Shown here piece by piece: positions 4,617-32,533 of a stretch of DNA of 64,000 bases. Numbering within the stretch: the stretch's first letter is position 1; every line of letters begins with the position of its first letter. The notes beneath the pieces are model-generated. The model saw nothing but the letters and a program-made list of their open reading frames with translations. It was not told where the DNA came from and ran no database searches. The stretch spans positions 64,001-128,000 of the forward strand of contig CAVSHR010000008.1 of the NCBI GenBank assembly GCA_963727625.1, written 5' to 3'. The DNA is from an uncultured delta proteobacterium. GTDB taxonomy: Bacteria; Desulfobacterota; Binatia; UBA9968. The position numbers and the translations under genes were made by a program.

Positions 4617-4619
4617 TTG

Positions 4620-10891: not shown

Positions 10892-10903
10892 GCGAGCGGT
10901 TTT

Positions 10904-12598: not shown

Positions 12599-12707
12599 CC
12601 GGACTGAACAATGCGGACTGAGGGTTGAGTTTCCAGCGCGGAATTGACTTTTGCGGTGCTCTCTTTTACTTTTACCTCAGCAATCGTCACTCAGTCCTTC
12701 GGAGCGT

Positions 12708-12783
<76 letters not shown>

Positions 12784-12884
12784 ATTTACTTTCCAGCATA
12801 GTCCTAAGAAGTCCATTAACCCATTGTAGCTAAACAGTTTTTTCTGGTATAGTGTCCGGCATGGTCCGATGCCGTTCAGGTAAA

Positions 12885-12948
12885 GCTGCCCCCATATTGG
12901 GGGCAACTCTGGGGGCAACTGGGTGACCAGGAAAGTGAGTTGCCCCCA
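12885..12948. repeat. Putative integrase arm-type sites TGGGGGCA(A/G)C, left junction
   Basis: Inverted copies at 12885-12894 and 12939-12948, direct copies at 12898-12907 and 12910-12919; the same motif occurs twice next to attR. Confidence 0.75.
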
Positions 12949-12949
12949 T

Positions 12950-14185: not shown

Positions 14186-14212
14186 ACCCTCGACCTCTTG
14201 AATGCCATTCAA
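14186..14212 (-). repeat. Inverted 27-bp copy of tRNA-Ala anticodon arm to T-stem
   Basis: ACCCTCGACCTCTTGAATGCCATTCAA is the exact reverse complement of 12735-12761. Confidence 0.9.
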
Positions 14213-14400
14213 AAATCAATCGTGACTAGATCCTAAAACAACCAGCAAAGCCCAACAATAACAAGCCCCAGGCGCTGCCTTACACGGCGGTTCTTGGGGC
14301 TTGTTGTTTCTGGTATGCGGACAAAAAGCGGACAGAGGTCGCAAACAAAAGGTCGGCGATTAACGGATCACAGTTTGCTGTATGACTTGCGCGATTGAAA

Positions 14401-14469
14401 GTAGACGCGCCGGACTCAAAATCCGGTAGGGGAAACCCTGTGCGGGTTCAAGTCCCGCCTCCGGCACCA
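14401..14469 (+). pseudogene. 5'-truncated tRNA-Leu(CAA), att-like fragment
   Basis: GTAGACGCG, anticodon arm CCGGA-CTCAAAA-TCCGG, long variable arm, GCGGG-TTCAAGT-CCCGC, CTCCGGCACCA; the 5' acceptor strand is absent. Confidence 0.9.
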
Positions 14470-14636
14470 CTTGATCCTTAGGGGTCACTGGTGACTAGAC
14501 CGAATCGAAAAAATTTTTCCTCACTTTTTGTTTGTTGCTCACCAATTGATTTGGCCGGATTAAGCTGCGGGGCGTGCGTTGCGCCTGCAACGCCGTTGCC
14601 GCTGGGAAATATGACCTGAAGTGACTTTTTCTACAC

Positions 14637-14706
14637 CCTCAACGTTCGACAAGAATGCTCTGACTCGGTGTGCCTGGGCAGGTCAGCTTGATGGAGAGGT
14701 TAGTCC
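14637..14706 (-). other. Degenerate integron attC-like site downstream of cupin gene
   Basis: Minus strand GGACTAAC-CTCTC-CATCAAGC...GTCGAAC-GTTGAGG; a GTTAGCC lies just upstream of the same gene (15241-15247, minus strand). Confidence 0.4.
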
Positions 14707-14733
14707 TTTTTGTTACATCACCTGCCCAAACGA

Positions 14734-15213
14734 TTAGTACGGGGAGCCATCCCTGTGCAAAAACTTCCACTTCCCATCAACCATCACCGCCTTGAGGTCA
14801 TCATCAGGGTAGCTGCCTTCATCGCCAGGCGTTCTGTCTCCCACTTCAAGGTAGGTAACCGCTTCCTCGGTTTCGTTGATCAATCGGTGGCCGTTGCCAG
14901 TGCCCGCCTTGAACCCAGCACACATGCCCGGCGAGAGTCTCGTTCGACCTTCGTCAGTTTGAAGAGTTGGGTGCCCCTGCAAGATGTAGACAAACTCGTC
15001 TTGCTTGGTGTGAGCGTGGCGCAGCGCCGACGCCGCCCTCGGAGCAAGCCAGGTCAGATTCACCCCGAAGTTGGTGAGACCAAACAAGTCACCCAACGGC
15101 TGCTTTTGCCTGCCTGCCATTCGGGATGCGAAGGGCTCGGGGTAGGTTGACACCTTCGTTTTTCGCGGCGCTTTATCTGCGATGACAGTAACAGGGAATG
15201 CTGGATTTGCCAT
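14734..15213 (-). CDS. Cupin domain protein
   Basis: LGDLFGLTNFGVN, SALRHAHTKQDEFVYIL and GHRLIN; AAGGAG RBS before ATG 15213. Confidence 0.88.
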   Translation of the reverse strand: MANPAFPVTVIADKAPRKTKVSTYPEPFASRMAGRQKQPLGDLFGLTNFGVNLTWLAPRAASALRHAHTKQDEFVYILQGHPTLQTDEGRTRLSPGMCAGFKAGTGNGHRLINETEEAVTYLEVGDRTPGDEGSYPDDDLKAVMVDGKWKFLHRDGSPY

Positions 15214-15522
15214 GCGTTGCTCCTTGTCGACGCCTATAAGGGCTAACTCGGGAGTACAGTGACGAGTATATTGCCGATTGCAAAACATCCCAGCGAGATA
15301 GGAGTTGTCAATCGATTTTCGTCGGCCTTTATTTCAACATAGCTGCAACGCACATCTCCCCCAAGAAATTGAATTGATCGACGCAATGAATCGAACTAGC
15401 AGAATTAATTCGTCGGAGAAAAAATTCAATTACACAATTACGCTCGCGGCGGTGAGCGGCCGCAGCAAGTTAGTCTGAGCCAGATGGTCCTATCAAAAGT
15501 TTTGTTGTGCCGCCTTTCCCGC

Positions 15523-15918
15523 CTACTTCGTCCATGCCACATTCTCAATCACGACGCGATATCCGTCGAGATCTTCAAATGTCTTGCCATGAGCATCCCA
15601 ATAGGGATTGTAGGACCGCACGCTTCAAAACCCAGCGGCAAGCATGCGATCACAGGCATGCTCCCATTCATTCTTGTCCGCGATGTAAAACACCAACAAA
15701 TGATCCATTGCTGGCGCCGTGCCGATGTGGTGCCCCCGTTGCGACATGAATTCCAGATGGTAGGGGTGCTGCGGATGTCCGAGAATCACCCCGTCGAAGC
15801 CTTCATGATTCACAAACTCGGCGAGACTGCTCACGCCGAGGCCCTGTTCGTACATGCCGGCAATTGCGGACACCTTGTCCGTTGTGCGAGCGACACGCAT
15901 AATATGTACAGGATTCAT
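15523..15918 (-). pseudogene. VOC/glyoxalase (YycE-like) gene with internal TGA
   Basis: The frame continues after the TGA at 15625 as SVRSYNPYWDAHGKTFEDLDGYRVVI, the typical family C-terminus. Confidence 0.8.
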
Positions 15919-15970
15919 AGTTCGCACCTCCTCGTAGCGGCATTACTTTTATTGCCGCGCACGTCCCACG

Positions 15971-17221
15971 CTATGCGTCACCTGCACGCACGACCACACG
16001 CCCGGTCATATACGGGTGCACCGAGCAGTGGTAATCATAGATGCCAGGCCGATCAAACTGACGGTGAAAACTTGCTCCCGGCAGCAACAAGTCTGTTCCC
16101 TTTGCACCGTCCTCGTACTCAAGCCCATGCGGTGCGCCGTCGTCATTGATCCAGGTGACGCGTTCCCCCGGAGCTATCGTGACCTGCGATGGCGTGAATG
16201 CAAAGTTAATGATCGATACCTTAGCGCCGCTGCTCGCCATTTTCGTCGCGGTGCCTTGGACAACAACCTTACGCGGCGCATTGCCCACTGCGATTGTTTT
16301 CGTCTGACCGGTAAGGAGATTGATGATGCTCAGATCGTTCGAGCCCTCATTGGTCACATACGCTTTCTTGCCATCACCGGAGGCGGTCGCCCAGTGCGGT
16401 TGTTTGCCTACCGCGACGCTGCGCACCGGCTTGTTGGTCGCCGGGTCGAACAATAGCAGCTCGCCCGACCCTTGCACGACGATTAGGCCGAACGCCGAGC
16501 CGCTCGGGTAACCAACGTAATGGGGCGATACGCCCGTTGGAATCTCTGCGATGATCTTTTGCGACGCTGGATCCAGAACCTGGACTGAGCTAACTCCGGC
16601 TTGCGTAAAGTAGAACCGCTTTCCATCGTAACTAAATTCCCCGTCGCGGGGCGTCTTCTCAACCGCCACGGTGCTAACAACCGTGCGCTTTGCCAGGTCG
16701 ATGCGGGCGAGCCCATAGTGCCCTGGTTCCTGCACCGTGACGTACGCGAACTTGCCGTCGGGACTGATCGCAACCGTATGAGGTTTAGGGAGGGACATTG
16801 TAGCAACCACTGTTAGTGTGGAAGTATCAATGAAGTCTATGCGGTTGTCGCCGTTAACCGTGACCACCAGCAGCCGGTTGTCAGGCGTGAGCGCCACTCC
16901 GTTCGGCGCCTTGCCAACATCGATCGTCTTAACCACTTTGTCGGTCGCCGTGTCGATCACGTCAAGCGACGAAGAGCCGTCGCCGCTGACATATACCTTG
17001 CGACCGTCCTGCGTTATCGCCATGCCATGCGGACCCGCGGAAACCGGGACGGTCGTAACCACGGCCCCCGCCTCTATATCGATTACGCTCACCGTGTTGT
17101 CTTTGAAATTGCTGACATAGGCCTTCGGCCCTGCAGCGAGAGCGGCAGTTGCCACCAAGGTAGTCAAAATAGCCGCAACATATGAGAGCCGGCCCAGCCG
17201 GTATTGAAATATTGGAAACAT
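15971..17221 (-). CDS. Secreted YVTN beta-propeller protein fused to a C-terminal cupredoxin domain
   Basis: Signal peptide; repeats AYVSN..DNTVSVID and AYVTNEGSNDLSII; type-1 copper ligands H...CSVHPYM. Confidence 0.9.
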   Translation of the reverse strand: MFPIFQYRLGRLSYVAAILTTLVATAALAAGPKAYVSNFKDNTVSVIDIEAGAVVTTVPVSAGPHGMAITQDGRKVYVSGDGSSSLDVIDTATDKVVKTIDVGKAPNGVALTPDNRLLVVTVNGDNRIDFIDTSTLTVVATMSLPKPHTVAISPDGKFAYVTVQEPGHYGLARIDLAKRTVVSTVAVEKTPRDGEFSYDGKRFYFTQAGVSSVQVLDPASQKIIAEIPTGVSPHYVGYPSGSAFGLIVVQGSGELLLFDPATNKPVRSVAVGKQPHWATASGDGKKAYVTNEGSNDLSIINLLTGQTKTIAVGNAPRKVVVQGTATKMASSGAKVSIINFAFTPSQVTIAPGERVTWINDDGAPHGLEYEDGAKGTDLLLPGASFHRQFDRPGIYDYHCSVHPYMTGRVVVRAGDA

Positions 17222-17278
17222 GGGAACCTCCTTATTGCGTTAAAGTAATAACTGCGCACCGCGATTGCTTTACCGCGT

Positions 17279-17305
17279 ATACCACGCACCGGCTGCTTTT
17301 ATTCC
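17279..17305 (-). promoter_or_regulatory. Putative ECF sigma promoter
   Basis: GGAATA-N17-GTAT upstream of the YVTN-cupredoxin gene; same spacing as two other copies. Confidence 0.55.
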
Positions 17306-17591
17306 CGGCCACGATGTTGTCAGCAACAAATGCGGAGCTAGCAACGAGTCGAGGCGGAACGTCGGTTCCGTTGCAATGAAGTTTTGAGTATTATCGGCGG
17401 GACATATTCATGACTGATCCAAAAACAAGCATGGTTCAAAAACTTACGCCATGAAATGACTTTGGGGACGTCTGCAAACTCACGCGCACTTCATTTTGCC
17501 TGATCTCAAGTTCGCAGGATTATGTTGATGGAGCATTCAACTCAATGTGAAATTGAGTCATTCCGAACAAAGAACAATTTGACGATGATCT

Positions 17592-18359
17592 TTATGATAG
17601 GGCTGACAACTGTGCTTTCAGTATTTGGGTGAATTTTTCAAGCTGGCTTTTTTCGAGATCAGACACAACCCAAAAAGTCATGCGCAATTGGTTCCAGTTA
17701 AAAATATTGTATCCCCGACGTGTGACCGCAGTATCGCCATCTACACTTTCGCCTGATGGCCAAATAAATACATTAATGAGGTGTTTATCGCGTTGGTAAA
17801 CCAGCGCAGCGACCGGTCTGTTGTTGAGATAATCAAGGCGTCCGCCCACTAATGGAAATCCCTGGGCAGCCAGATTCGCCACTGGCGGTGAAAAATCTAA
17901 CTTGCCATTGAACCACGGCTTAACCGTGTGTTGATCCGATGAAGGAACGTCGGTTAAATGGTTGGCCATTAGGGAACGAGCATGGCTGGAGATCACTTCC
18001 TGGGCCAGGGTTCCCTCGGGAGAAGGTCCGCGGAAAAACGGGACCAGAGTCAAAATTACAAGCGCAGCGGCGGCTATGGGACTTGCGACTCGGGCCCACG
18101 ACCAAAGCGATTTCCGAAGCGACGGATCGTCCTTGGCGGCCCGCTGTAAAGCGCGCTGAATGCGCTTCTGGAGATCCGGCGGCGCATTGAAATAGACCGA
18201 GTTCATCCTTAGCCCATCGCGAATGACTTGGCGGTTTTTATAGCGCTCCGAGCAAGGGGCACACGCATGAAGATGATCTTCGACCTCCAAGTTGCGCATC
18301 AAATCCATTTCTCCGTCGATGTATGCGTCGATTAGGGTTTGTGCGTTTGTACAGTCCAC
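17592..18359 (-). CDS. Zinc-binding membrane anti-sigma factor
   Basis: HLHACAPC (HxxxCxxC ZAS motif), one TM helix, and periplasmic SSDQHTVKPWFNGKLDFSPPV; GTG start at 18359. Confidence 0.9.
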   Translation of the reverse strand: MDCTNAQTLIDAYIDGEMDLMRNLEVEDHLHACAPCSERYKNRQVIRDGLRMNSVYFNAPPDLQKRIQRALQRAAKDDPSLRKSLWSWARVASPIAAAALVILTLVPFFRGPSPEGTLAQEVISSHARSLMANHLTDVPSSDQHTVKPWFNGKLDFSPPVANLAAQGFPLVGGRLDYLNNRPVAALVYQRDKHLINVFIWPSGESVDGDTAVTRRGYNIFNWNQLRMTFWVVSDLEKSQLEKFTQILKAQLSALS

Positions 18360-18360
18360 C

Positions 18361-18891
18361 TTAGGGCTTCTCCTTAAGCCGAGCGCACAAAATTCGCTTG
18401 AGCCGAGCTCGCGCACGCGCCAGTCGCGACATGACTGTACCCAAAGGAACTTTGGTCATTTCCGCTATTTGCTTATAAGAGAATTCTTCCAGATCACGCA
18501 AGACTATTATCTCCCGAAAGTCAGCCGGTAATTGCTCCAGCGATTCTTTGAGCATCTCCACGTCGCGGCTCTTAAGCACCAACGCCGCGGGATTCAATGT
18601 GTCATCCTCGGCCGTTTGTATTTCCTCATCCAACTCGGTCGTACTATTGTACCCACGATTTTGTTGCAGCCAAGTGTAACAAGTGTTGCGCACGATGGTG
18701 AGTAACCAGGCGCGAGCGTCCGTCCCGCGAAAACCGTCGAAGAATTTAAACGCGCGCAAGTATGCCTCTTGCACCATATCCTCTGCATCGTGCTCATTGC
18801 GCGTCAACCAGCGAGCTAAGTTGTATGCAGTATTCATATAAGGCAAGACGGTTTGCTCAAAACGCGCCAGTTTATCTTTATCTTTCCACAA
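18361..18891 (-). CDS. ECF RNA polymerase sigma factor
   Basis: DAEDMVQEAYLRA, WLLTIVRN and region 4 SYKQIAE...GTVMSRLARAR. Confidence 0.95.
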   Translation of the reverse strand: MWKDKDKLARFEQTVLPYMNTAYNLARWLTRNEHDAEDMVQEAYLRAFKFFDGFRGTDARAWLLTIVRNTCYTWLQQNRGYNSTTELDEEIQTAEDDTLNPAALVLKSRDVEMLKESLEQLPADFREIIVLRDLEEFSYKQIAEMTKVPLGTVMSRLARARARLKRILCARLKEKP

Positions 18892-18894
18892 TTA

Positions 18895-18921
18895 AGACTC
18901 GCCCTCCCTCCTTTTTATTCC
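18895..18921 (-). promoter_or_regulatory. Putative autoregulatory ECF promoter (near-leaderless)
   Basis: GGAATA-N17-GTCT ending a few nt before the sigma start codon. Confidence 0.6.
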
Positions 18922-19083
18922 TGGGGAACCCGAGAAAAACGGATACGGCTTATTGCTTGGGCATTGGTCGGCGCGGAGTGTATTAGGCACTGTGAGAAAA
19001 GTCAATGAAGGTGAAATCGGTTTCTAATGAATTGTTCCGCAAATGCCCCGCGAAGGGACGTTTTCAGAAAAGTTTTCATCGCG

Positions 19084-19110
19084 GGAATATTTTCGGGTGC
19101 TTCTTTGTCA
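19084..19110 (+). promoter_or_regulatory. Putative divergent ECF promoter
   Basis: GGAATA-N17-GTCA pointing toward a short stop-interrupted frame and the MFS gene. Confidence 0.5.
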
Positions 19111-19581
19111 ACGGAGCATATACAACGAATTGATCGCGATCGAGGTGGTTAGGATGAAGAACAGGAGATAGTCGTTGCAGATGCGTTTCTACGGAGAGTT
19201 ATTGGTTTGGTAGGCCCGTCTGCGCGTGGTCATGACGGAGCAGTGATCTCTAAAGAAGGCTTAAAAGATGGGAGTCTCTGCCAAATTCAATTCCTGGCAT
19301 TGCACGAAGTTACTCTGATCGAGCCTGTTGCAATGCTAAACCCAAACCATGACATCGACTCTTCGTTTCCTGCTCCGCCGAGCCGCGGGCAAGAACAAGA
19401 TACAGACCGAAAGAATCGAGGCAGAGCATAGGAGTGCCTCGGATTGCAAGGAATAAATTCATGTTGTGAGAGACCTGGGAGAAGGCGCGAGTTCTTTTCC
19501 AAATCGTCGCGCCGCGCCTATGACAAGATTGTTACCTCTCAAACGAAACCAATACGCCTCACTCGATAGAGGAACTCGACA

Positions 19582-20913
19582 ATGAAGAGTATTCATGATC
19601 ATGAACTGTTAAGAAGTTCATCGGCCTGGGCTCCACTGCGTAAACCACTTTTTCGAGCGCTCTGGATTTCCTCTCTTACGTCAAGCATCGGCACCTGGAT
19701 GCACGAAGTTGGCGCCGCGTGGCTCATGACCTCGCTGACGCTGTCACCTATGATGGTGGCGCTCTTACACACCGCGGCGAGCCTCCCCATGTTTCTGCTG
19801 GCCCTCCCTGCGGGAGCGATTGCCGACATGTTGGATCGGCGCAAAATCTTACTATTCACACAGGGCTGGATGCTCGCTTCAGCGGCAGTGCTTTGTGTGG
19901 TTACGGCTTTGGGTGTGATCACTCCGTGGTTGTTACTCATTCTGACATTCGCCCTTGGTGTCGGCGCGGCAATGAATGCCCCTGCGTGGCAGTCGACGAT
20001 CCCCGAGTTTGTCCCTGCTGCGAATATTCCGGCCGCAGTGGCTCTAACCGGTCTGGGCTTGAACTTAGCGCGCGCTGTGGGACCGGCAATTGGCGGAGCC
20101 ATAGTGAAAGGGGTCGGAGCTTGGGCGGTCTTTCTTTTGAATGCTGCTTCGTTTCTCGGAGTGATAGTGGTCCTCTTTTGCTGGCGCGGCACATCAGAGC
20201 AGAAGCCATCACCGGCCAGTCCCGTAATGAGTAACATCGGTGAAGGAATCCAATACGCTTTACACGAACCGGGTCTGCGCGCAGTGCTGGTTCGTGTCAG
20301 TCTTTTCGTACCATTTGCAAGCGCCTTGTGGGCTTTGGTGCCACTACTGGCCCGCCACGATCTAGCACTGAATTGCTCCGACTATGGAGCCCTTTTTGGC
20401 TGCTTGGGCATAGGCTCAGTGATGGGTGCCCTATTTCTCCCCAAGTTACGTTGCCACTTTGCCACTGACACCCTTGTGGGCAGCGCCACCATTCTGTTTG
20501 CGGCAGCGACAGCAGCGTTGGCCGAGGTCCGTCATTTTGGATTGTTATGTTTGGTGTTGATGGTCGGGGGCATGGCATGGATTACCTTGATGTCCGCTTT
20601 CAATGTAGCAACCCAGATGGCGGTACCGTCATGGATCAGGGCTCGGGCGCGAGCCTTATATCTCTTGGTCTTCCACGGTTGCATGACTGTTGGAGGCGTG
20701 TTTTGGGGCGTGCTAACCGAGCATGCGGGAGTCTCTGCCTCGCTCCTAGGCGCAGCGGCAGGAATGGTCGTGGGTGTCGCGGCTATTAGGCTGTGTCCGC
20801 TACCGGAATCAGGGATGAGTTCTACGACTCACCGGCCGGAGCCGACTCGCGAAAGTATGGGCCTATCATCCGTGGCAGCTGGTGCTTATGGGCATCGGTC
20901 AAATATGGGTTAG
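19582..20913 (+). CDS. MFS transporter (MFS_3-like)
   Basis: FRALWISSLTSSIGTWM, GAIADMLDRRK and NLARAVGPAIGG; about 12 hydrophobic segments. Confidence 0.9.
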   Translation: MKSIHDHELLRSSSAWAPLRKPLFRALWISSLTSSIGTWMHEVGAAWLMTSLTLSPMMVALLHTAASLPMFLLALPAGAIADMLDRRKILLFTQGWMLASAAVLCVVTALGVITPWLLLILTFALGVGAAMNAPAWQSTIPEFVPAANIPAAVALTGLGLNLARAVGPAIGGAIVKGVGAWAVFLLNAASFLGVIVVLFCWRGTSEQKPSPASPVMSNIGEGIQYALHEPGLRAVLVRVSLFVPFASALWALVPLLARHDLALNCSDYGALFGCLGIGSVMGALFLPKLRCHFATDTLVGSATILFAAATAALAEVRHFGLLCLVLMVGGMAWITLMSAFNVATQMAVPSWIRARARALYLLVFHGCMTVGGVFWGVLTEHAGVSASLLGAAAGMVVGVAAIRLCPLPESGMSSTTHRPEPTRESMGLSSVAAGAYGHRSNMG

Positions 20914-21269
20914 AGCACTCCATTGAGTAAACAAATTGCGAACAGAATGGTTGAACGCGAAAAGTACCATTCACTTTAGCTGGACGGTAAAAAAAGGAAA
21001 ATGATGCCGGTCGCGGCCTCAGCGAACAGAGTTTAGTTCGATCCTCCCGAGAAATGTCAAGAATCGTCGGCCGTGATTCGGCCAGCGTTACTAATCAATT
21101 GGTTGGATTCAGTTGATCGAGAAATAAAGGCACTTTCAAAAAACATCGAAACAGATTTTCCGCGTTTTCGCCGGGCGCGAAGCATCGACGGTTGGAGTGC
21201 GCGTGGAACGACGGTGAGAGGCGTTCTCACTTTGTTGAGGGGGTTAGATAAAATGCTGTCTGGTTTGAC

Positions 21270-21364
21270 TGTGTGACTTACACATTTTCTTACACAGTCA
21301 CATAATTTACAAAAATAAAACTAATACTATTAAATAGTTAACGTTAGACGCGCCGGACTCAAAA
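21270..21364 (+). repeat. 95-bp att-like repeat, copy 1 (arm repeats, AT-rich spacer, tRNA-Leu core)
   Basis: TGTGTGACTTACACATTTTCTTACACAGTCA-N33-ATAGTTAAC-GTTAGACGCGCCGGACTCAAAA; the last 20 nt are identical to 14402-14421. Confidence 0.85.
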
Positions 21365-21439
21365 GTTATCCTTTGTCGGGCAAATCTGTCCGGGCTAAAC
21401 ACAAACACGGGGAGCGAATCCTATAACTGAACCAGCAAT

Positions 21440-21473
21440 GCGAGCGTGGCGGAATGGCAGACGCAGTGGACTC
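21440..21473 (+). pseudogene. tRNA-Leu 5' exon (to first anticodon base)
   Basis: GCGAGCGTGGCGGAATGGCAGACGCAGTGGACTC directly followed by a group I intron; TATAAC lies at 21422. Confidence 0.8.
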
Positions 21474-21660
21474 AAACCAAACTTGAGTGCTTGTGCGGGA
21501 AACCGCCGATGTAGAACTGCTCAAAGTCGGGGAAGCCTGTAACATGGTAATCCCGAGCCAAGCCCCTTAAGCAGGGGAAGGTGTAGAGACTAGACGGGCA
21601 GCACCTAAGTAACGGATTCGATCCGCGATATGGTGAAGGGATAGTCCAGACTCCAAACCG
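21474..21660 (+). ncRNA. Group I intron core (tRNA-Leu type), 3' end apparently missing
   Basis: P1 ACTCAA/TTGAGT; P3 CTGCTC/GGGCAG; P4 TCGGG/CCCGA; R element GTAGAGACTAGA; S element AAGGGATAGTCC (P7 GACTA/TAGTC). Confidence 0.88.
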
Positions 21661-21736
21661 GTTGTCATAACATCAGGCATGAGACATCAACGTGCATTGA
21701 ATCGGAAGTCCATTTCGCTCACGTCCGACCGAGCGA

Positions 21737-22351
21737 CTAATCGCAGCAAGTATCGCCACGTAGGGCTTCGATTCCTTCTTTAGCGATGATCGGAACCATC
21801 GCCAAAGCGGCTACTGGATCAGCCCACCACCAACCAAATAGAGCGTAAAGTCCGAGGCCGAGCACAAGGATTGCTGACAAATAAGCGCAAATGTCGGTCT
21901 GCCTAGAATCGGCGTGCATGGCTTGGCTCTTGATCGACGAAGCCACTTTGCGTTTGGCCGATGCGAGAAGGGGCATCACGATTAAGGATAAGATTGCCAC
22001 ACCGATACCAACATAACTTTTTTCCGGTGCCTCGCGAAACCACAGAGTCGTTACAGCATCGATCGCAACGTACGCGGCGAGCGCTAAAAAGCTGAAGCCG
22101 ACCAGTTTTAAGGCGATCTGCTCCCGATGTTCCCCGGAAACCAGACGCCACAGCAACACCGCTCCCGATGAGACTTCGATCACCGAATCAATGCCAAAGC
22201 CGACAAGCGCAACGCTCCCTGCAACGATACCGGCGCCGATAGATATGATGGCCTCGAGTGAGTTCCAGCCAATCGTGAGATATTCGAGTCTGCGCCCACG
22301 TCGGACAATAGCAGCACGGGGATTTTCTTGAGTTACAACTTCTATGCTCAT
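21737..22351 (-). CDS. Cation transporter (short CDF-like)
   Basis: WNSLEA, GSVALVGFGIDSVIE, ADSRQT and GWWWADPVAA; six TM segments. Confidence 0.85.
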   Translation of the reverse strand: MSIEVVTQENPRAAIVRRGRRLEYLTIGWNSLEAIISIGAGIVAGSVALVGFGIDSVIEVSSGAVLLWRLVSGEHREQIALKLVGFSFLALAAYVAIDAVTTLWFREAPEKSYVGIGVAILSLIVMPLLASAKRKVASSIKSQAMHADSRQTDICAYLSAILVLGLGLYALFGWWWADPVAALAMVPIIAKEGIEALRGDTCCD

Positions 22352-22520
22352 TTTTGAAATGTATCAGTCAGCACATAAACGGAGCAATACCGCTTGCAAG
22401 ACGATCTCTGTTCCGCACTAGATTGTTGCCCCTTGACCTGAATTTTGGTTTAAAGTTTTACATACCTTGTTAAAAACGGATGGCCACAATCATGGCACGG
22501 GCGGTGTCGGCGTCGGTGGA

Positions 22521-22559
22521 CCGTAATGGCTAAGGGTTCAACTCCCTCCGCCCGCACCA
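22521..22559 (+). pseudogene. tRNA-Leu-like 3' fragment (variable arm, T arm, acceptor, CCA)
   Basis: AGGG-TTCAACT-CCCT-CCGCCCGC-ACCA; CGCCCGC pairs 6/7 with GCGAGCG at 21440. Confidence 0.7.
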
Positions 22560-22632
22560 TCCTTTCTTACGGTCTTCCTTTTACCTCTGCTCTCTCCTAG
22601 AGCGGGCGGGTGCGAATAGCCAGTCAGTCCGT

Positions 22633-24933
22633 TTAGCTGGAGAACGCGAATTGATTCTCTCTGAATAGCTGTATGCATGCATCGGCGACGGCTACGTCAT
22701 AACTGCTGCCCCGGTGTGCCGAGATTTCCTCAAGGGCTCTCTCTATCCCGAGACCGGGCCGATACGGGCGGTGCGAGGCCATCGCCTCGACGGTGTCTGC
22801 CACTGCAAGGATTTTCGCGCCAATCAGGATCTCCGGGTCTTTCAGTCCGCGCGGATAGCCGGACCCGTCAAGCCGTTCGTGATGCTGATAAACGATTTGC
22901 GCAATCGGCCACGGGAAATCGATTTCCTTGAGGATGCTGTAACCCGCCTCGGCGTGGGTCTTGATCAGTTCATATTCCAATGAGGTGAGGCGCGAAGGTT
23001 TTGAGAGAATTTCGGCTGGCACCGTGAGTTTTCCAAGATCATGCACAATCCCGGCGAGACGAATGCCGTTAATCTCGTCCTCGGCTAGATTGAGTTTGCG
23101 AGCAATGGCCTCGGCAAGTTCAGCTACCCTGCGTTGGTGTCCCGCCGTGTAGGGGTCGCGCATATCTACGGTGGCAGCCATCGCGGATATAGTCCCTTCC
23201 ATACTACGTTTCAGACGTTCAGCGCTTTGCGCATGTGCCGCCCTAACCCTCAAGGTCGCTATGCCGAAGGCGAGATCATCCGCGAGCTCGCCGAGTAACC
23301 GGACTTCTTCTTGATCGAAGCCGTTCCGTTCCGCTGCATAGATGCTAAGCGCCCCGAACACACTGCCATTGTTTTGGAGCGGAGCGGCCAGCACCGAACC
23401 GTAACCAGTCCTGATCGCGTCATCTCGCCACGACGCATACCCTGGATCTTCAAGAACGTTCTGCACCAGTTGAATGCTTCGCGTCCGAATGGCTTTACCG
23501 ACAGGACCGCTCCCGAGTTCATTATCAGCCCAACTTCTTGTTTTACATGGTTCCGGGCAGCCGTCATCGTAGCCCCATTGGGCAACCTGCCGCACAGTCT
23601 TCTCGGCGTCACCCTCGGCATAGCCGATGCAGGCAACACGATAGCCGGCGATGTCAACAATAATGCGGCACAGTTCGCGCACCAGATCGTTTTCGTCTAT
23701 TGCGTGAATGATAGCATCGTTACAATGACTCAAGGCCGTCAATGCCCGGGTCAGTTTCCGCTGCGTAACCTCGGCCCCTTTGCGCTCGGTAACATCGCGA
23801 AAGAACCACACCCGCCCGTAATACGTGGAATCCGCGCCGAACATGCCGGAAGAATAGCGATCGATGGTTCGACCGTCCTTCAGCTCGATTTCTTCGTGGC
23901 TGGTCTCATCTTTGTGTTCGTAGAGAAATTGGACTCTCGTGACAAACGCCGCCGGATCGCTGACCTGCCCTCTGACGTTTTGCAACACCGGCGCGTCTAT
24001 GCCGGCGATTACCATCTCCTCAGGCACCTTCCACAAATCGACAAACTGCCGATTGTACGAAATGATCTCTGCCTGCTCGTTGACAACCAGGATGGCGTCC
24101 GGGGAAACCTGCTGCTGGGTCGTGAGCACAGCGTTCTTGAATTGCAACTCGTGCAGGATCTGCTGGCGACCCGTGATATCCCGGGCGTTAATGATAATCC
24201 CGCCGATCAGCGGATCATCGAGCACATTCTTGGTGATCGTCTCAAGCAGCAACCAATTTCCATTCTTATGCCGGTAGCGAAGTTCCGCACTGTTATTAGA
24301 TGTTCCCACCGTGTTTGCGGCAGGCGCTAGCATGGTCAGCGCAACGGTCAAATCGTCCGGGCACAAAAATTCCCTGATGTCGCGATTGAGGAATTCCGAG
24401 GGTTCGTATCCCAGGATTCGTTCGACGTTCGGGTTGGCGTAGGTGATCGTGCCCCGGCTGTCGACAATTGCAATCAAATCTGAACTGTTTTCGATCAAAG
24501 CTCGAAAGCGCCGATCATGATCAGCCACAGCCAGCTCGGATCGGTTGCGCTCGGTCGAGTCGCGCAAAACGAGTTGGAAACCTTTTTCATTTTCGTGGCG
24601 GTAAGAGGTTACAGTAATTTCAACGTCAACCGAGGTGCCATCTGCTTTTAGCAGTCGATCTTCAAAGCGGACTAGCCCGATCTTGCAGGCTTGGAGTTCT
24701 TTGATGCTCGCGTGAACCCTCTCCAGGGACGTTGGCGGAATGAAATCGAACACGGACTGCCCCACGATTTTCGCGGGGTGCGTAACTCCGAGCAGTTTCG
24801 CGCAAGCGTCATTGACAAGCACGATTTTTCCGTTCGTTTGGATAAGAATTCCGTCAGGAGAGAGTTCAAATAGGTGATGATAACGGTCATCTGATTCCCG
24901 CAGTAATCTGGCGCTAAGCTTTTCGGCATACAT
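22633..24933 (-). CDS. PAS-PAS-PAS-GAF-HD-GYP cyclic di-GMP phosphodiesterase
   Basis: PAS starts FELSPDGI, IENSSDLI and VSPDAILV; GAF domain; RDPYTAGHQRRV, HDLGK and HHERLDGSGYP. Confidence 0.93.
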   Translation of the reverse strand: MYAEKLSARLLRESDDRYHHLFELSPDGILIQTNGKIVLVNDACAKLLGVTHPAKIVGQSVFDFIPPTSLERVHASIKELQACKIGLVRFEDRLLKADGTSVDVEITVTSYRHENEKGFQLVLRDSTERNRSELAVADHDRRFRALIENSSDLIAIVDSRGTITYANPNVERILGYEPSEFLNRDIREFLCPDDLTVALTMLAPAANTVGTSNNSAELRYRHKNGNWLLLETITKNVLDDPLIGGIIINARDITGRQQILHELQFKNAVLTTQQQVSPDAILVVNEQAEIISYNRQFVDLWKVPEEMVIAGIDAPVLQNVRGQVSDPAAFVTRVQFLYEHKDETSHEEIELKDGRTIDRYSSGMFGADSTYYGRVWFFRDVTERKGAEVTQRKLTRALTALSHCNDAIIHAIDENDLVRELCRIIVDIAGYRVACIGYAEGDAEKTVRQVAQWGYDDGCPEPCKTRSWADNELGSGPVGKAIRTRSIQLVQNVLEDPGYASWRDDAIRTGYGSVLAAPLQNNGSVFGALSIYAAERNGFDQEEVRLLGELADDLAFGIATLRVRAAHAQSAERLKRSMEGTISAMAATVDMRDPYTAGHQRRVAELAEAIARKLNLAEDEINGIRLAGIVHDLGKLTVPAEILSKPSRLTSLEYELIKTHAEAGYSILKEIDFPWPIAQIVYQHHERLDGSGYPRGLKDPEILIGAKILAVADTVEAMASHRPYRPGLGIERALEEISAHRGSSYDVAVADACIQLFRENQFAFSS

Positions 24934-25380
24934 ATCGACTCTCTTGCTGCACCAGAGTCGTAGCGAAGAGCAGATTAAATATGTGTTGGTGCTGAGGCAT
25001 TAACTATCAAGTTTCCAGAAACCCACGAAACCAATTGAACTAGGATGAGCGTGCTTGCAAACTTAGGAAATCCGGTATGCGGCACGGTAACAAAGACGTC
25101 TATAACAACGCAGGCGCAAAGGTCGCGCCAAAAGACTTAAACCGCCAAGCATCTAAATTATCGACATTAATCCTTCGGTCGGGGGACCGGTATAACAGTT
25201 ACAATGACGAAATCTTCTATTTTTTGTACATATATGGACGAGATGAACTCGTATGGGCTGAAATTTCCCCCTGAATGTGCAGCTGTGAAGTGCGCGGCGA
25301 ATGCGAACGGTTCCCGTTTCTTTACAGATTTTCTTGTTCTGAACCTGTTGTAGGTTCGTAATGAGGCAGTTCAACTGGCT

Positions 25381-25475
25381 TGTGAGACTTACACATTTTC
25401 TTACACAGTCAGATTTTAATTTTCGAATATATTAATTATTACAGATAGTTAACATCAGAAGCAGAAGACTCAAAA
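25381..25475 (+). repeat. 95-bp att-like repeat, copy 2 (degenerate tRNA-Leu core)
   Basis: TGTGAGACTTACACATTTTCTTACACAGTCA-N33-ATAGTTAAC-ATCAGAAGCAGAAGACTCAAAA; ungapped alignment to copy 1. Confidence 0.85.
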
Positions 25476-25511
25476 TCTGATGCGGTCAGTTTGACCAACC
25501 TCAAGCGGGGT

Positions 25512-25540
25512 GGGAGCTATTGATTGCTAATCAATTGGTC
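25512..25540 (+). repeat. tRNA-Lys-like anticodon-arm fragment (related copies at 21091-21103 and 28388-28406)
   Basis: GGGAGCT-ATTGA-TTGCTAA-TCAAT-TGGTC forms a 5-bp stem with a 7-nt loop plus a variable-loop sequence; 17/19 match to 28388-28406. tRNA identity is inferred. Confidence 0.5.
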
Positions 25541-25632
25541 CCTCACAATCAATGGAAATCAAAAGACTTTTTTACGACTGTCCATGAATTTGTCCGTGGG
25601 ACTCCCGTGCGTTCCAACCAATTGCGCAAACA

Positions 25633-25923
25633 GCCTATGAGTGAGAACGCCATACTGGCGGCACTGCGGCGGATGGGTTACCCGAAAGAGAAATGACCGG
25701 CCATGGATTCCGCAGCATGGCGTCGACGCTGCTGCACGAACAAGGCTGGAATCATCAAGCGATCGAGCGCCAGCTTGCCCATGCCGAGCGCAACGCCGTA
25801 AGCGCGGCCTACAATTTCGCCGAGCACCTGCCGGAGCGGCGCAAGATGATGCAGGCTTGGGCGGATTATCTGGACGGGCTAAAAGCTGGGGCGGAATTGA
25901 TACCGTTGTTTAGGAAGGCGTAA
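25633..25923 (+). pseudogene. 3' fragment of a second copy of the P4-like integrase
   Basis: Near-identical to 13892-14183 (MTGHGFRSMASTLLHEQGW...WADYLD); no N-terminus and a 1-nt deletion near 25690. Confidence 0.9.
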
Positions 25924-26035
25924 GCCGGTCGATGTGAATCTAAATTCCCCCGATGAGGACTATCGGAAGATTCACGAGGAGATTCAGGAAGCCAGGCGAT
26001 GGTTGGCCGCGAAGAAAGATAAGCCGATCATCCAC

Positions 26036-26240
26036 TAATATGCGCTGCACCAGCTGTGCATGGCTCGCTACTTCTTGCGCGACTTTCACGGCGTCCAGCG
26101 CCAAAACCCGAATGCGATTACGGCGAATGTACTCTTGGGCGCGGGTAGGAATAGATTTCCATACCTGGGCGGGGTCGCGGCTTTGATGCTGCACGAAGAC
26201 GGTTCCGCCGGGGAATCAGGCCATCGAGCGGATATCGCGG
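26036..26240 (-). pseudogene. Internal fragment resembling 2-oxoacid:ferredoxin oxidoreductase
   Basis: GGTVFVQHQSRDPAQVWKSIPTRAQEYIRRNRIRVLALDAVKVAQEVAS; no start or end context. Boundaries approximate. Confidence 0.45.
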
Positions 26241-26434
26241 CTGCCGAGTCCGGCGGCGCCGTGGAGCGGGTATTGGGCACGGGTCAGGCGGTTTTCGTCA
26301 AACCTGCGAGAATTGCAGGCTAGATTTTTTAGCATTAAGGCAGTTTATAGGCGAAGCAAAACTAAAGGCCAAGCCATCTTAGTTCATGGCAGACGGCAAA
26401 CACTTTCAATCGTAAAGACCGCTGACGCGTTAGC

Positions 26435-28144
26435 TCACGGCACAAGCCCTGCAGCCTTCAGGGCTTTGTAGATCGTATAACCTCCGGACAGGTTCCTTGA
26501 GTGATACCCGTGCTGGGTTAGAAAACGGCTGGCGAAATACGCACGCTGTCCGACCGCGCAACACACCCAGATGTCGCGATCTTTTGGCAGCTCGGCGTAA
26601 CGGGAGCGCAGTTGGGAGAGCGGCAGGTTGATCGCCTTGGGTATGTGCCCGCGGCTAAACTCGTCGCCTTCGCGCACGTCGAGCAATAATGCGTCGGTGC
26701 GGTCAAGCTCCAGCCAATCTGCCACGGGCATGTCGCCATTCAGAACGTTCTCGGCAAGCATGCCGGCGAGGTTGACCGGGTCCTTGGCGGCGCCAAACTG
26801 CGGCGAGTAGCATAGCTCGGCCTCAGCCAGATCGTGCACCGTGCCGTGGAATTGAATTGCCGTGGCGATGACATCGATGCGCTTCTCCACGCCTTCAAAC
26901 CCCACCGCTTGTGCGCCGAGGATACGGCCGTCGGGCACGGAGAATACGAGTTTGAGATGGATCTGCCGCGCGCCGGGATAGTAGCCGGCGTGATGCCCCG
27001 GGTGAAGGTAGACTTTCTCGAAGCCCGTGACGCCGGCGCGTCGCAGTCCTTTCTCGCTCGCGCCGGTCGACGCGACGGTCAGACCCAACACGCCTACCAC
27101 GGCGGTCGCCTGCACGCCGCGGAACTGCGTCGTGCGCCCGGCGATCGACTCGGCGGCTACTCGTCCTTGCCGATTTGCCGGTCCCGCGAGAGGCAGCACC
27201 GTTTCTTGACCCGTAAGCACGTCTTGCACTTCAACGACGTCGCCCACCGCCCAGATACGGGGGTCGGTCGTGCGCATCTGCGCATCGACGACTATCCCGC
27301 CGCGCGGGCCGATCTCTAAACCGGCGTCCTTGGCAAGCGCGGTCTCGGGCCGCACCCCGATGGCCAGAATGACGAGATCTGCCGGCAAGCGTGCGCCGCT
27401 CTCTGCGACGACAACCAAGCCGGCGCCGTCGTGCTCTTCGATGCGCGCAAGCCCGTCGCCCAAACAGAGCTGCACGCCCTTAACAGCAAGGTGTTCCATC
27501 AGCGGCGCCGCCATCTCGGGGTCGAGCGGCGGCATGACCTGGGGCAGCTTCTCCAATACCGTGACGGCCAGCTCGCGATGGATCAAATTTTCGACCATCT
27601 CCAAGCCGATGAACCCGCCGCCGACCACAACGGCGGTCTTGGCGCTATGATCCGTAATCCACGAACGGATGCGGCGGGAGTCCGGGATCGTGCGCACGGC
27701 GAATACGCCGGGCAAATCTACGCCCGGGAGCTGGGGTCGAATCGGCGCGGCGCCGGGCGACAGGACAAGCGCATCGTAGTGCTCCGTGCGCCTGTGGCCT
27801 GTGCGGAGATCGCGCACGTTAATCGTGCCGGCGCTGCGGTCGATGCCAGTGGCCTCGGTATCGGTATGCACCTCGATATTGAAACGCTCATGAAACATTT
27901 CTCGCGACGCCACCAGCAGGCTGCTCTCATCAGAAATGACGTTGCCGACGTAGTACGGCAGCCCGCAGTTCGCGAACGAGACATACGGACCGCGGTCGAT
28001 CAAGACGATCTCGCTGGACTCGTCGAGCCGCCTCAACCGTGCCGCGCAGGAGGCGCCGCCCGCGACACCCCCGACAATGAGTACGCGACGGGGTGTCTCA
28101 CTGTTACGCGAAGCGGTTGACTGGGGGTCAGTTTGCTGGATCAT
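26435..28144 (-). CDS. CoA-disulfide reductase-like FAD oxidoreductase with rhodanese domain
   Basis: GGVAGGAS, SFANCGLPY, GGGFIGLE, YSPQFG and C-terminal LLDVRE...GHIP...CAVGQR; ATG 28144. Confidence 0.92.
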   Translation of the reverse strand: MIQQTDPQSTASRNSETPRRVLIVGGVAGGASCAARLRRLDESSEIVLIDRGPYVSFANCGLPYYVGNVISDESSLLVASREMFHERFNIEVHTDTEATGIDRSAGTINVRDLRTGHRRTEHYDALVLSPGAAPIRPQLPGVDLPGVFAVRTIPDSRRIRSWITDHSAKTAVVVGGGFIGLEMVENLIHRELAVTVLEKLPQVMPPLDPEMAAPLMEHLAVKGVQLCLGDGLARIEEHDGAGLVVVAESGARLPADLVILAIGVRPETALAKDAGLEIGPRGGIVVDAQMRTTDPRIWAVGDVVEVQDVLTGQETVLPLAGPANRQGRVAAESIAGRTTQFRGVQATAVVGVLGLTVASTGASEKGLRRAGVTGFEKVYLHPGHHAGYYPGARQIHLKLVFSVPDGRILGAQAVGFEGVEKRIDVIATAIQFHGTVHDLAEAELCYSPQFGAAKDPVNLAGMLAENVLNGDMPVADWLELDRTDALLLDVREGDEFSRGHIPKAINLPLSQLRSRYAELPKDRDIWVCCAVGQRAYFASRFLTQHGYHSRNLSGGYTIYKALKAAGLVP

Positions 28145-28434
28145 GCAACCTCCGATTGAAGGCAGTGTGCGTATCGTAAATCCAGTACAGGCGAAAACAG
28201 CTTCTTGGCTGCCATCGAGAACGCTCTGCAGTGAGCAGCAATCTGACGACCGTCCTGCCAAGTCCTCGCCTTCGCTCTGTGAGCTGCATCATAGAAACCG
28301 GCCGATCCCCTTGAATTGGATTTCCCTTCAATTGTCCCTCACAGGCTGCTGTTCCATGTCATGGCGAATCAAGCATTCGAGAGTTACTTGATTGCTAACC
28401 AAGTGGGCTTTCTGATCACAAGCATTCCAATCGA

Positions 28435-29152
28435 TCATTTGTTCCACACCTCAGCAGTCAGCGGCAGCTCATTGAGTTCAGCACGCGCGTCGCGCCAGGT
28501 GGGGTAATGCTTCTCAAGGAGTTCGATGAAGCGATCGCTGTGCGTCGGCGCCACGCAGATGCACCATTTCGTGCACGATCACGTATTCGAGCAGGTCTTT
28601 CGGCTTCTTCACCAGTTCGGTGTTGAGGCGGATGTGGCCGGCGCGGTGGTTGCAGCTTCCCCACTTGGTTTTCATCCGTTGCAGGAAATAGCCGGTGACT
28701 TTCACTTTCAGCTTCGGCTCCCATTTCTTGATGAGGGCAGGCACGGCTTCATGCAGCAGCGACTTGTGCCAGTCGTGAATGCATCTTGGCGCGCTTGGCC
28801 GCATCGCTGCCGGGGCGCACCGTGAGAGTGATGCGTTTGTGGTCGAGCGAAACGAAAGGCTTGGCGTCCCGGTAAACGACGGTCAGGAGGTGGCGCCGCC
28901 CCCAGAGATAGTGGCTCTCGCGTTCGACGAACTGGCGAGGTGTTTCCCGTGCTTGGCTTCGCAGATTTGTCTGCTGCTCGCGAATCCAGCCCAGCTTGGA
29001 GATCGCATAGGCGCGGGCGACATCTAGACGGGTTGCTGTGGGTGCCGACATTGTCACTCGCCCGTCCGGCGGATGGACAGAGAGGTGGACGTTCTTGATG
29101 TCCTTCCGCGTCACCCGATGGAAAGCTCTCCGAGCTGGATGGTCTCGGTCAT
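28435..29152 (-). pseudogene. M48/YgjP-like metallopeptidase following hsdR (frameshifted)
   Basis: RKDIKNVHLSVHPPDG, MKTKWGSC and YVIVHEMVH lie in different frames; TGATG overlap with hsdR. Confidence 0.85.
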
Positions 29153-32100: not shown

Positions 32101-32275
32101 AGCCGCGCCGCTTCAGGTTCGCCCGGAGCAGGTCCGCCTCGATGCAACGGTTGTTGTCCCGCTTGTTCCACTCGCCGAGGTAATCGTAGCCGAGGCAATC
32201 AGGCCGGGCCTTGTCCGTGAACAAATCGATGACGCGGTTCTGCGTCTTGCGTTCGGAGCGGGGTTGTTCAGGCAT
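29152..32275 (-). pseudogene. hsdR: Type I restriction endonuclease subunit R (frameshifts in C-terminal third)
   Basis: [48 protein letters not shown] and QAICRTNR; frame changes after ~30490. Confidence 0.92.
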
Positions 32276-32528
32276 GGGATTCCTTGAGTGAAATGCACCG
32301 CAGCCTCCCGGCGAGGAGTTCCTGCATCATGCCCTGTTTAGCCGGATGGCTGATCTGTTCCCCCGAATATTTGCATTTCGTCAGACAGTCGGTGAGAAGA
32401 TTCTCCTTGATTTTGCTGTTGTCCAGCCGGTCGGTCCAATCGCCGAGGTAACGGTAATAGAGTTTGTCGCGCAAAAGGGCGGCGACTCGGTTTTGTGTCA
32501 CGCGTTTTGGCCTCCCGGCTACGTTCAT
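32268..32528 (-). pseudogene. Chimeric remnant: HsdR-like N-terminus fused to HsdS-like C-terminus
   Basis: RVTQNRVAALL...YLGDWTDR resembles the HsdR start ([11 protein letters not shown]...YLGEW); [14 protein letters not shown] resembles the HsdS end (KQAMMQELLTGRTRL). Confidence 0.75.
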
Positions 32529-32533
32529 GCGAT

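Follow-up and report, generated by a model that had tools for sequence, protein, structure and literature searches.

Introduction

Among the streptococcal integrative and conjugative or mobilizable elements (ICE/IME), decayed elements known as cis-mobilizable elements (CIMEs) lose their integration genes and keep their attachment (att) sites, and in tandems new elements integrate into the attR site of a resident one (PMC5704250). The tycheposons of Prochlorococcus are described as successive integrations at one tRNA gene, which push older elements inward, in islands with scattered fragmented integrases and partial tRNAs (10.1101/2020.12.28.424599). Here, we analysed a 64,000-nt stretch of DNA (the window, G000:C8:64001–128000) in which cargo modules parted by fragments of tRNA-Leu(CAA) stand in tandem inside an island at a tRNA-Ala(GGC) gene. 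G000 denotes the genome under study, C-numbers denote contigs and L-numbers loci; positions given without a contig are those of the window. Since G000 is a draft of 15 contigs with 6.3% estimated contamination, single-base frame changes were not counted as proof of decay.

The window modules resembled the CIME accretions (PMC5704250) in lacking integration genes, carrying att sites and standing in tandem. They differed in lying inside the island of another tRNA and in having no intact partner element, and a mobilisation like that of CIMEs would be an analogy. The arm family and the intron-bearing tRNA described below were particular to the clade of G000. Fragmented integrases and partial tRNAs were features in common with the tycheposon islands (10.1101/2020.12.28.424599). 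Unlike in tycheposons, the tRNA-Leu fragments lay inside a tRNA-Ala island, and the organisms are unrelated. No tycheposon-type replication or integration module was seen in the window island.

Integrons comprise an IntI-type integrase, an adjacent attI site, a cassette promoter (Pc) and attC hairpins, and their cassettes are mostly single promoterless open reading frames (ORFs) in one orientation. The first-pass annotation of the window had read the island as an integron-like platform whose cassettes move in trans. The window does share with integrons a chain of units parted by recombination sites, but it has no IntI/attI/Pc platform, and its integrase was P4-type by Pfam. Its sites are tRNA-derived cores with one-sided arms instead of attC hairpins, and its modules hold two to six genes on both strands with regulators of their own (a sigma/anti-sigma pair), unlike integron cassettes. 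On these grounds the integron comparison was abandoned; the chain of tRNA scraps would be the debris of ordinary site-specific accretion and is not to be read as a new integron-like system.

Results and discussion

A two-module tRNA-Leu(CAA) array

The sequence from 14402 to 25475 is a two-module piece of a tandem array. It was made by elements whose target is the tRNA-Leu(CAA) anticodon loop, with GACTCAAAA as the core. This core was found at 14413, 21356 and 25467, in sites A, B and C, all on the plus strand. The sites that bound the units stem from one target gene, and no integrase was present in 14.4–25.5 kb. Module 1 (14402–21364) runs from the core, the tRNA 3' part and an element flank to arm B with its core. 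In module 2 (21365–25475), a segment, Y, and an intron-bearing tRNA come first, and arm C and the core last. The GC content of the two modules (14–26 kb) was 48–58%, lower than that of the core-genome flank (55–62%).

Site A (14402–14472) begins with the Leu core and runs on through the 3' 67 nt of tRNA-Leu(CAA) to CTT. Positions 14403–14472 were identical to C9:101404–101473 (70/70), which covers nt 20–86 of the tRNA and three flanking bases. The sole tRNA-Leu(CAA) gene of G000 (C9:101385–101470) thus lies on another contig than the window array. The 20-nt Leu core TAGACGCGCCGGACTCAAAA, reported in the first-pass annotation as a repeat, was confirmed as exact and had exactly two copies in the window (14402 and 21345); the tRNA portion at site A, with its 70 nt, was larger than had been claimed there. 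The base before AGAC at site A was T, as in the arm consensus, versus C in the tRNA, which suggests that an arm once stood to the left of A and has since been lost. The element-side flank behind site A (14473–14529, plus strand) was conserved in the relatives G014 and G047. It occurred just 3' of the intact tRNA-Leu(CAA) in G014 (84% over 118 nt, including the tRNA part) and at an internal junction in G047 (82% over 126 nt), and was unlike the flank of G000's own tRNA-Leu on C9.

Site B (21239–21364) is a Leu arm with two copies of CTTACACA (21277 and 21289), ATAGTTAAC and the 20-nt core ending in GACTCAAAA. It scored 105 bits with R1, a sequence model built from five Leu arms, and was homologous to the attR arm on C9 (nhmmer, E = 5e-12). 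At site C (25181–25475), an extended Leu arm, again with CTTACACA twice (25388 and 25400), leads to the core (25467–25475), and non-tRNA sequence follows. R1 gave 99 bits over 25348–25475. The arm matched that of site B over approximately 130 nt (nhmmer, E = 1.8e-5), with a 31-nt block at 97% identity, and the degenerate Leu site proposed at 25455–25475 was upheld, as it keeps GACTCAAAA behind this B-homologous arm. Positions 25181–25452 were 86% identical (272 nt) to an arm of G047, a genome of the same family as G000 and a different genus, which had been located by scanning genome contigs for an exact 23-nt arm block (three stretches in two records). In G047, this C-type arm runs without interruption into the core, the tRNA-Leu 3' part and an A-type flank. 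The window segment from A to C thus appears to represent the ends of a G047-like contiguous structure that was opened at the core.

The arms had GACTTACACATTTTCTTACACAG, an AT-rich spacer, ATAGTTAA and GACTCAAAA in common. Mean column identity in the arm alignment (A2) was 77%, and the copies were 62–77% alike. CTTACACA was kept in 4 of the 5 aligned arms, and the 23-nt block GACTTACACATTTTCTTACACAG was identical in 4 of 5 otherwise differing arms and recurred in locus L052 of G047. The bases immediately left of the core varied and the right side was tRNA or element flank, which points to a crossover in the anticodon loop. A chance origin of the sites was ruled out by the exact 27-, 70- and 20-nt matches (the first of these at a tRNA-Ala piece described below) together with the homologous arms. 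A scan with R1 covering 31 genomes of the genus returned Leu arms in three, the match in G012 being weak. Three further arms were found by R1 in G047 (68–82 bits), none of which had been used in model building.

Arrays at the target gene in G000 and relatives

The window array lay 1.6 kb from tRNA-Ala and not at tRNA-Leu(CAA), whereas on C9, in G014 and in G047 the arrays were located at the target gene. On C9, a 64-nt copy of the tRNA-Leu(CAA) 3' part occurred 13.4 kb behind the real gene, and the approximately 150 nt before this copy were homologous to the B and C arms. Behind the intact tRNA-Leu(CAA) of G014 lay two modules (3.6 and 2.9 kb), both ending in an arm, the core and the tRNA 3' part; a P-type ATPase was encoded in one, and cytochrome b561 with dihaem cytochromes in the other. 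Three more tRNA-Leu(CAA) 3' fragments (G014:C13:224616–235733, spaced 5.2–5.8 kb) probably continue this array, which is cut off where contig C31 ends. The array behind tRNA-Leu(CAA) in G047 was approximately 24 kb long and had eight further GACTCA[AG]A sites, three of them with R1-scored arms before them; its cargo was metabolic.

Only the tRNA-Leu parts, the arms, the site-A flank and the intron-bearing tRNA were common to the window and the arrays of G014 and G047, and the cargo was unrelated. Gene content therefore changed at the sites in these comparisons, with att-flanking segments alone in common. The proposal that the sites are recombination joints of tRNA-targeting elements and the blocks separate modules was also borne out, and tandem accretion at tRNA-Leu(CAA) with the same arms occurred in G014, G047 and on C9. 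This arm family of tRNA-Leu(CAA) elements was previously undescribed, and it closes integrase-less modules in three genomes.

The C9 island (L001 = C9:100800–115800, 585–14127) encoded an RND efflux system, MerR and insertion sequence (IS) genes, and none of the 13 ORFs scanned was an integrase gene. It also contained an exact 45-nt 3' fragment of tRNA-Thr(CGT) (L001 1284–1328).

The host island at tRNA-Ala(GGC)

An island of approximately 35.6 kb sits in tRNA-Ala(GGC) (12784–48403), and the stretch from 14186 to 28408, which includes the array, forms its left third. The left attachment site is the intact tRNA-Ala(GGC) gene (12708–12783, plus strand; ARAGORN; Rfam tRNA, 67.2 bits), the sole tRNA gene in the window according to ARAGORN. 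When window positions 10000–12784 were compared with 40 relatives, the core-flank alignment ended at approximately 12784, the 3' end of tRNA-Ala, in most relatives listed. A P4-type tyrosine integrase gene stands next to the tRNA in the same orientation (12950–14183, plus strand; Pfam Phage_int_M 8.4e-41, Phage_integrase 7e-24 and a partial Arm-DNA-bind_3). Between the two, an arm region (12784–12949, plus strand) carries TGTCCG/GTCCG at 12853 and 12864 and GGGGGCAAC twice (12899 and 12911). By eye, this region was far better kept in G019 and G021 than the integrase gene, which had 77% nucleotide identity to theirs.

The far end of the island, overlooked in the first-pass annotation, is a right attachment site at 48378–48403 (plus strand), consisting of the tRNA 3' end and AATTT (24/25, one base absent) and preceded by GGGGGCA twice (48302 and 48314). 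This 3'-end repeat and the paired GGGGGCAAC beside the tRNA delimit the host island at approximately 12784–48403. G017 is without the island, and only 144 nt separate its tRNA-Ala from the homologue of window 49187–50489. Three-frame translation of the window integrase revealed a frame change after approximately codon 14, at a CCCCAAA run near 12990, and the longest clean ORF spans 13125–14183; the frame change could be an assembly error.

Origin of the window array

We consider the array to be, with fair probability, a decayed mosaic that arose by serial site-specific accretion and was later subject to decay and rearrangement. Elements that recombine at the core GACTCAAAA in the tRNA-Leu(CAA) anticodon loop made the tandem array, each module being closed by an arm of approximately 130 nt (CTTACACA twice, an AT-rich spacer and ATAGTTAA) and then the core. 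Since module 1 ends with arm B and the core and module 2 starts with Y, site B has the form of a joint between an incoming element and a resident core; module 2 would thus go back to an incoming element that recombined with the terminal core of module 1. The array piece may then have entered the tRNA-Ala island as cargo or via a later rearrangement, with truncation of both outer ends. The Leu sites are now most likely inert scars, given that G000 has no cognate integrase, the intron-bearing tRNA is broken and the left arm of site A is missing.

The outer junctions of the array had no recognisable att partner. Segment X (14330–14405), before site A, had matches in none of the 30 other genomes of the genus, and segment Z (25476–25640), after site C, matched one of the 30 over only 22 nt; neither tRNA nor Y follows site C. 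Such junctions would also be expected from a juxtaposition that was not site-specific, in which IS-mediated or homologous rearrangement, or an assembly join, brought the pieces together and the sites are unconnected with the tRNA-Ala island. Several IS copies in the island are identical to copies on C4, a 1788-bp segment has a 99.66% duplicate on C12, and the draft, with its estimated contamination, leaves room for false joins. We regard this explanation as very improbable, because the internal joints (B and the C arm) were exactly as in the arrays of relatives and because an assembly whose contigs reach hundreds of kilobases would not be misled by repeats of just 20–70 nt. Site B as assembled was also matched at 100% identity by contigs from other public metagenome runs (X1–X4, kept as contigs only): an X1 contig (21294–21490) spans the core junction, and an X3 contig (21195–21345) ends there. 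The joints 14421->21365 and 21364->25476, which excision of modules would leave, were not found in the contigs of the four runs; these contained only 5–11% of the sampled words, and the result carries little weight.

Candidate integrases and possible mobilisation in trans

Every array examined was without an intact integrase, as the first-pass annotation had noted for the window blocks, whose sole recombinase remnant lies at 25613–25923. PF00589 matches were absent from the C9 island and modules 1 and 2 (0/16 for G000) and from the array stretches of G014 (0/11), and the single match in the G047 array (1/19) was a 150-aa fragment. The fragment beside the tRNA-Leu of G047 belongs to an integrase family with members in 37/123 genomes across the order and 12/30 other genomes of the genus. 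G000 had no homologue of this family at E ≤ 1e-8, and a relic of 35–45 residues was detected in its C9 island (approximately L001 3308–3436). In G007, a 366-aa family member is convergent with an intact tRNA-Leu(CAA) gene, 85 nt apart. Convergence was general in the family: in all nine loci examined, of 25 returned, a tRNA gene lay at the 3' end of the integrase gene (L071, L072, L075, L076, L078, L081, L085, L086 and L088, the last from the unpublished genome G094; integrases of approximately 370–390 aa). The tRNAs had eight anticodons, namely Leu-CAA, Leu-TAA, Ser-CGA, Ala-CGC, Lys-CTT, Thr-CGT, Ala-GGC (two loci) and Val-CAC. An integrase beside tRNA-Leu(CAA), of the kind that the annotation had suggested looking for, exists in G007, but R1 found no arm there and its family has no homologue in G000 at the threshold given.

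A family this common, and convergent with tRNA genes in 9/9 loci examined of the 25 returned, could provide the recombinase for modules that are cassettes of a cis-mobilizable type. The arm and core would then still be recognised by an integrase supplied in trans, and the Leu sites would serve as extra landing pads. The lack of an intact integrase in every array seen fits this explanation, as do the identical 23-nt blocks and ATAGTTA found beside unrelated cargo in three genomes of two genera, and site B is structured as expected for an incoming element that used the core of a resident module. In contrast, no family member was found in G000 at E ≤ 1e-8, no near-identical pair exists among the arms (62–77% alike), so that no recent movement is visible, and the arm family is rare (3/31 genomes of the genus). 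The window copies are also damaged: the left arm of A is absent, the intron-bearing tRNA is broken, and C is without tRNA or Y. We judge mobilisation in trans to be a possible but unlikely explanation. Movement of cassettes in trans at present, as proposed in the first-pass annotation, was not supported, given the absence of a cognate G000 integrase and the decayed module parts, and nothing shows a use of the Leu sites as landing pads inside the tRNA-Ala island.

Several points weigh against our preferred explanation of serial accretion followed by decay. The conserved 23-nt blocks (GACTTACACATTTTCTTACACAG in 4/5 arms and L052) resemble binding sites, and their conservation suggests that the arms may have been under selection until recently. 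Modules without integrase in every array fit mobilisation in trans better than repeated independent loss, and accretion leaves the presence of a tRNA-Leu array inside a tRNA-Ala island unexplained. Since segments X and Z have no usable relatives, the empty site is not reconstructable. The frame changes in the integrase genes may stem from misassembly, G000 being a draft of 15 contigs with an estimated contamination of 6.3%. Finally, R1 found no Leu arm in G007, and the G007-type integrase would be tied to the CTTACACA arms by its target and neighbourhood only.

An intron-bearing tRNA-Leu(CAA) in module 2

Group I introns of the Leu.3Cg type are known from 72 cases, all in Proteobacteria (Williams, 10.1101/2020.01.27.920355). 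Module 2 opens with segment Y (21365–21439, plus strand), the element-side flank before the intron-bearing tRNA, which was recognised by alignment with two G047 copies and one in G005, an unpublished genome like G094; approximately 150 nt of the spacer in these relatives is absent from the window. Directly behind Y lies the 5' exon of a tRNA-Leu(CAA) (21440–21473, ending at C34) with a group I intron (together 21440–21664, plus strand). Both this exon and the relic of the 3' exon (22533–22559) had been overlooked. The intron matched the full Rfam Intron_gpI model (1–253) at 45.1 bits (E = 8e-9), below the gathering score of 50, and was 83–91% identical to the copies in G005 and G047, which themselves scored 39–43 bits (three G047 copies and G005), also below the gathering score. 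A fourth, partial intron copy was found in G047 by BLAST.

The window copy has lost the intron 3' end with the splice site there, as well as most of the 3' exon. A segment of approximately 870 bp (21665–22532) has replaced the last part of the intron and the first part of the 3' exon, where G005 and G047 have only about 83 nt; it contains, on the minus strand, a 204-aa cation-efflux (CDF) ORF (21737–22351; Pfam Cation_efflux 7.8e-14). Behind it lies a relic of the T-arm and acceptor end (..CACCA) of the 3' exon (22533–22559, plus strand), which was 77–86% identical to the 3' exon region of G005 and G047 and scored as a weak tRNA-like 3' end in Rfam (E = 0.41). Contigs of X2 and X4 join 21659 to 22533/22534. 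This joint was rejected as an excision product, as the contigs come from relatives with an intact intron-bearing tRNA.

The unit of core, Y and intron-bearing tRNA occurred twice in G047 behind other left flanks (L055, 14094–14703 and 17037–17462) and once in G005 (L043, 6718–7277). Nothing is missing from the 3' exon of the G047 and G005 copies, in which the anticodon stem, variable arm, T-arm and acceptor are all complementary to the 5' exon. As read from the alignments, the intron follows C34, with C at -1. As in Leu.3Cg introns, it is located between nt 34 and 35 of tRNA-Leu, with the C at -1 paired to G in P1, and a G precedes the 3' splice site in the intact G005 and G047 copies, which would accordingly resemble that type in sequence and may be able to splice. 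The window copy, without its 3' splice site, is unlike the type in this respect. The account of Leu.3Cg does not place the introns beside att sites of integrative elements (10.1101/2020.01.27.920355); an intron-bearing tRNA-Leu(CAA) directly beside an attachment core thus points to a possible mobile-element context for them.

In G005, the 5' half of the native tRNA-Leu(CAA) (C111:6718–6756) is joined to Y at CTCAAAA, and an intact intron-bearing tRNA-Leu(CAA) stands behind Y. No other match to tRNA-Leu(CAA) was found in the assembly, so the intron-bearing gene is the only complete one found there. A cut native gene beside an intron-bearing copy suggests, from this unpublished genome only, that the element interrupts the host gene and supplies a substitute for it. 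G005:C111 yielded no integrase, and this replacement arrangement was seen in G005 only. It resembles the tRNA-dependent lysogeny of actinobacteriophages (PMC10865867). Unlike in that system, the island modules are not phages, the replacement tRNA has a group I intron and no integrase stands alongside. The replacement tRNA of the window is moreover broken, and any dependence of a host on such a replacement would be by analogy.

An intron inside the core may shield it from further integration, which is only an idea; at the DNA level, the 5' exon and first intron bases still read GACTCAAA in the window and GACTCAGA in the relatives. Taken further, there could be a clade-wide family of integrase-less modules (arm and core), moved in trans by tRNA-convergent integrases, by which islands gain landing pads and in which an intron-split replacement tRNA shields the core. 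We regard this combination as distinctly unlikely. If it were true, any island that picks up a module would gain a secondary landing pad through the carried core, and some modules would interrupt the host tRNA while providing an intron-split substitute.

Cargo of modules 1 and 2

The cargo region of module 1 (14734–20913, mixed strands) was annotated with Pfam. On the minus strand, it encodes a cupin (14734–15288), a YycE-like VOC protein (15625–15927), a beta-propeller/cupredoxin protein (15971–17221), a zf-HC2 anti-sigma factor (17592–18416) and an ECF sigma factor (18361–18891); an MFS_3 transporter gene follows on the plus strand (19582–20913). The propeller and sigma/anti-sigma genes had relatives at 72–82% nucleotide identity in G024 and G006, in which model R1 found no Leu arms. 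Apart from the cation-efflux ORF, the cargo of module 2 is a 766-aa PAS-GAF-HD (GYP-type) signalling protein (22633–24933, minus strand; Pfam HD_5 1.4e-39, PAS and GAF).

Module 3 and the proposed Lys-like sites

The block behind site C (25.5–28.4 kb, module 3) is probably what remains of a separate P4-type element that has undergone a deletion in its integrase and is flanked by imperfect repeats of 26 nt. Its direct repeat 1 lies in a degenerate tRNA-like relic (25495–25540, plus strand), and direct repeat 2 (28381–28406, plus strand) matches 25514–25538 at 22 of 26 positions. This motif had four sites genome-wide at up to three mismatches and none in each of five shuffles of a 410-kb contig. 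Behind the relic, TGTCC occurs twice (25579 and 25591), followed by a second P4-type integrase tail (25613–25923; together 25579–25923, plus strand). The tail comprises the last approximately 100 codons and has a frame change; by tblastn, it was 70% identical to the window integrase over aa 250–276 and 89% over aa 271–352, in two frames. A small ORF separates it from the gene for a CoA-disulfide-reductase-like flavoprotein with a rhodanese domain (26435–28261, minus strand; Pfam Pyr_redox_2 1e-60, Rhodanese 6e-17). Positions 26394–28181 are the segment duplicated on C12 (1788 bp, 99.66%, C12:431098–432885). The C12 duplicate lies 4 kb from another copy of the P4-type integrase, 5'-truncated and frame-shifted, with the 150-nt unit described below (C12:425894–427181).

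tRNA resemblance was assessed by local scores against all 49 tRNAs of G000, with shuffles as control. Three sites had been described as Lys-like cores, two of which make up the 22/26 direct repeat. Their best local scores (13, 15 and 11) were at most at or just above the 95th percentiles of the shuffles (13, 14 and 13), and a tRNA-Lys origin was rejected, as none resembled either tRNA-Lys of G000. The relic at 25495–25540 was weakly similar to the 5' two-thirds of tRNA-Thr(CGT), with a score of 16 against a 95th percentile of 14 and a maximum of 18 in shuffles of a similar stretch (25500–25555).

A conserved 150-nt unit with an inverted tRNA-Ala piece

Behind the window integrase lies a conserved unit of 150 nt (14186–14335, plus strand). 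It starts with the inverted tRNA-Ala piece noted in the first-pass annotation (14186–14212), an exact 27-nt reverse complement of tRNA-Ala(GGC) nt 27–53, and continues with a hairpin of approximately 22 bp and CGGACAAAAG.CGGACA, so that CGGACA occurs twice (14317–14334). The paired short repeats listed in that annotation (GCGGACA, CTTACACA and TGTCC) were all present, and the first two were conserved in aligned copies: GCGGACA, at 14317 and 14328 in the window, appeared as CGGACA(A)...GGACA in 12/12 aligned copies of the unit. Other G000 copies were located at C12:427016–427181, C4:194863–194986 and C2:799225–799348, and ten further full or near-full copies came from 8 loci from 5 relatives plus G000; loci with the unit included L058–L065 and L097. 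In some copies, the tRNA-like part extends into the T-arm. The hairpin consensus had 22 pairs within 28 predicted pairs, five of which change on both sides. A structured unit with an antisense tRNA-Ala piece is thus multi-copy in the genus.

The unit followed directly on the stop codon of a P4-type integrase gene in the window, on C12 and in G019, and stood behind the remains of such a gene in G003. At ten places (8 loci) it stood alone, with no integrase match and no nearby tRNA, except for one locus with two unrelated tRNAs 4 kb away. Two roles were considered, an attP of the P4-type integrase and an attR scar of tRNA-Ala elements. Neither fitted, as the core is inverted relative to tRNA-Ala (window and G003) and the island's own repeat is the tRNA 3' end. 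The inverted core indicates that the unit is neither a simple attR scar nor the island's own used site.

Other features of the island and window

A type I restriction-modification locus (28514–38071) was fragmented: a YgjP-like gene was split between two ORFs, HsdR was spread over at least three, and HsdM was in pieces. The fragments are either pseudogenes or the result of assembly frame errors. IS-type segments at 41229–43783 and 46240–46840 (DDE_3, DDE_Tnp_1) were 99–100% identical to C4:965510–967558, and an IS1595-type transposase gene lay between them (45288–46187). Fragments of a second tyrosine recombinase, with a SAM-like N-terminal domain and the first half of the catalytic domain, were found just before the right attachment site (47139–47820). 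At approximately 61 kb (region 61073–61549), the window contained a 306-aa open frame with a full integrase domain.

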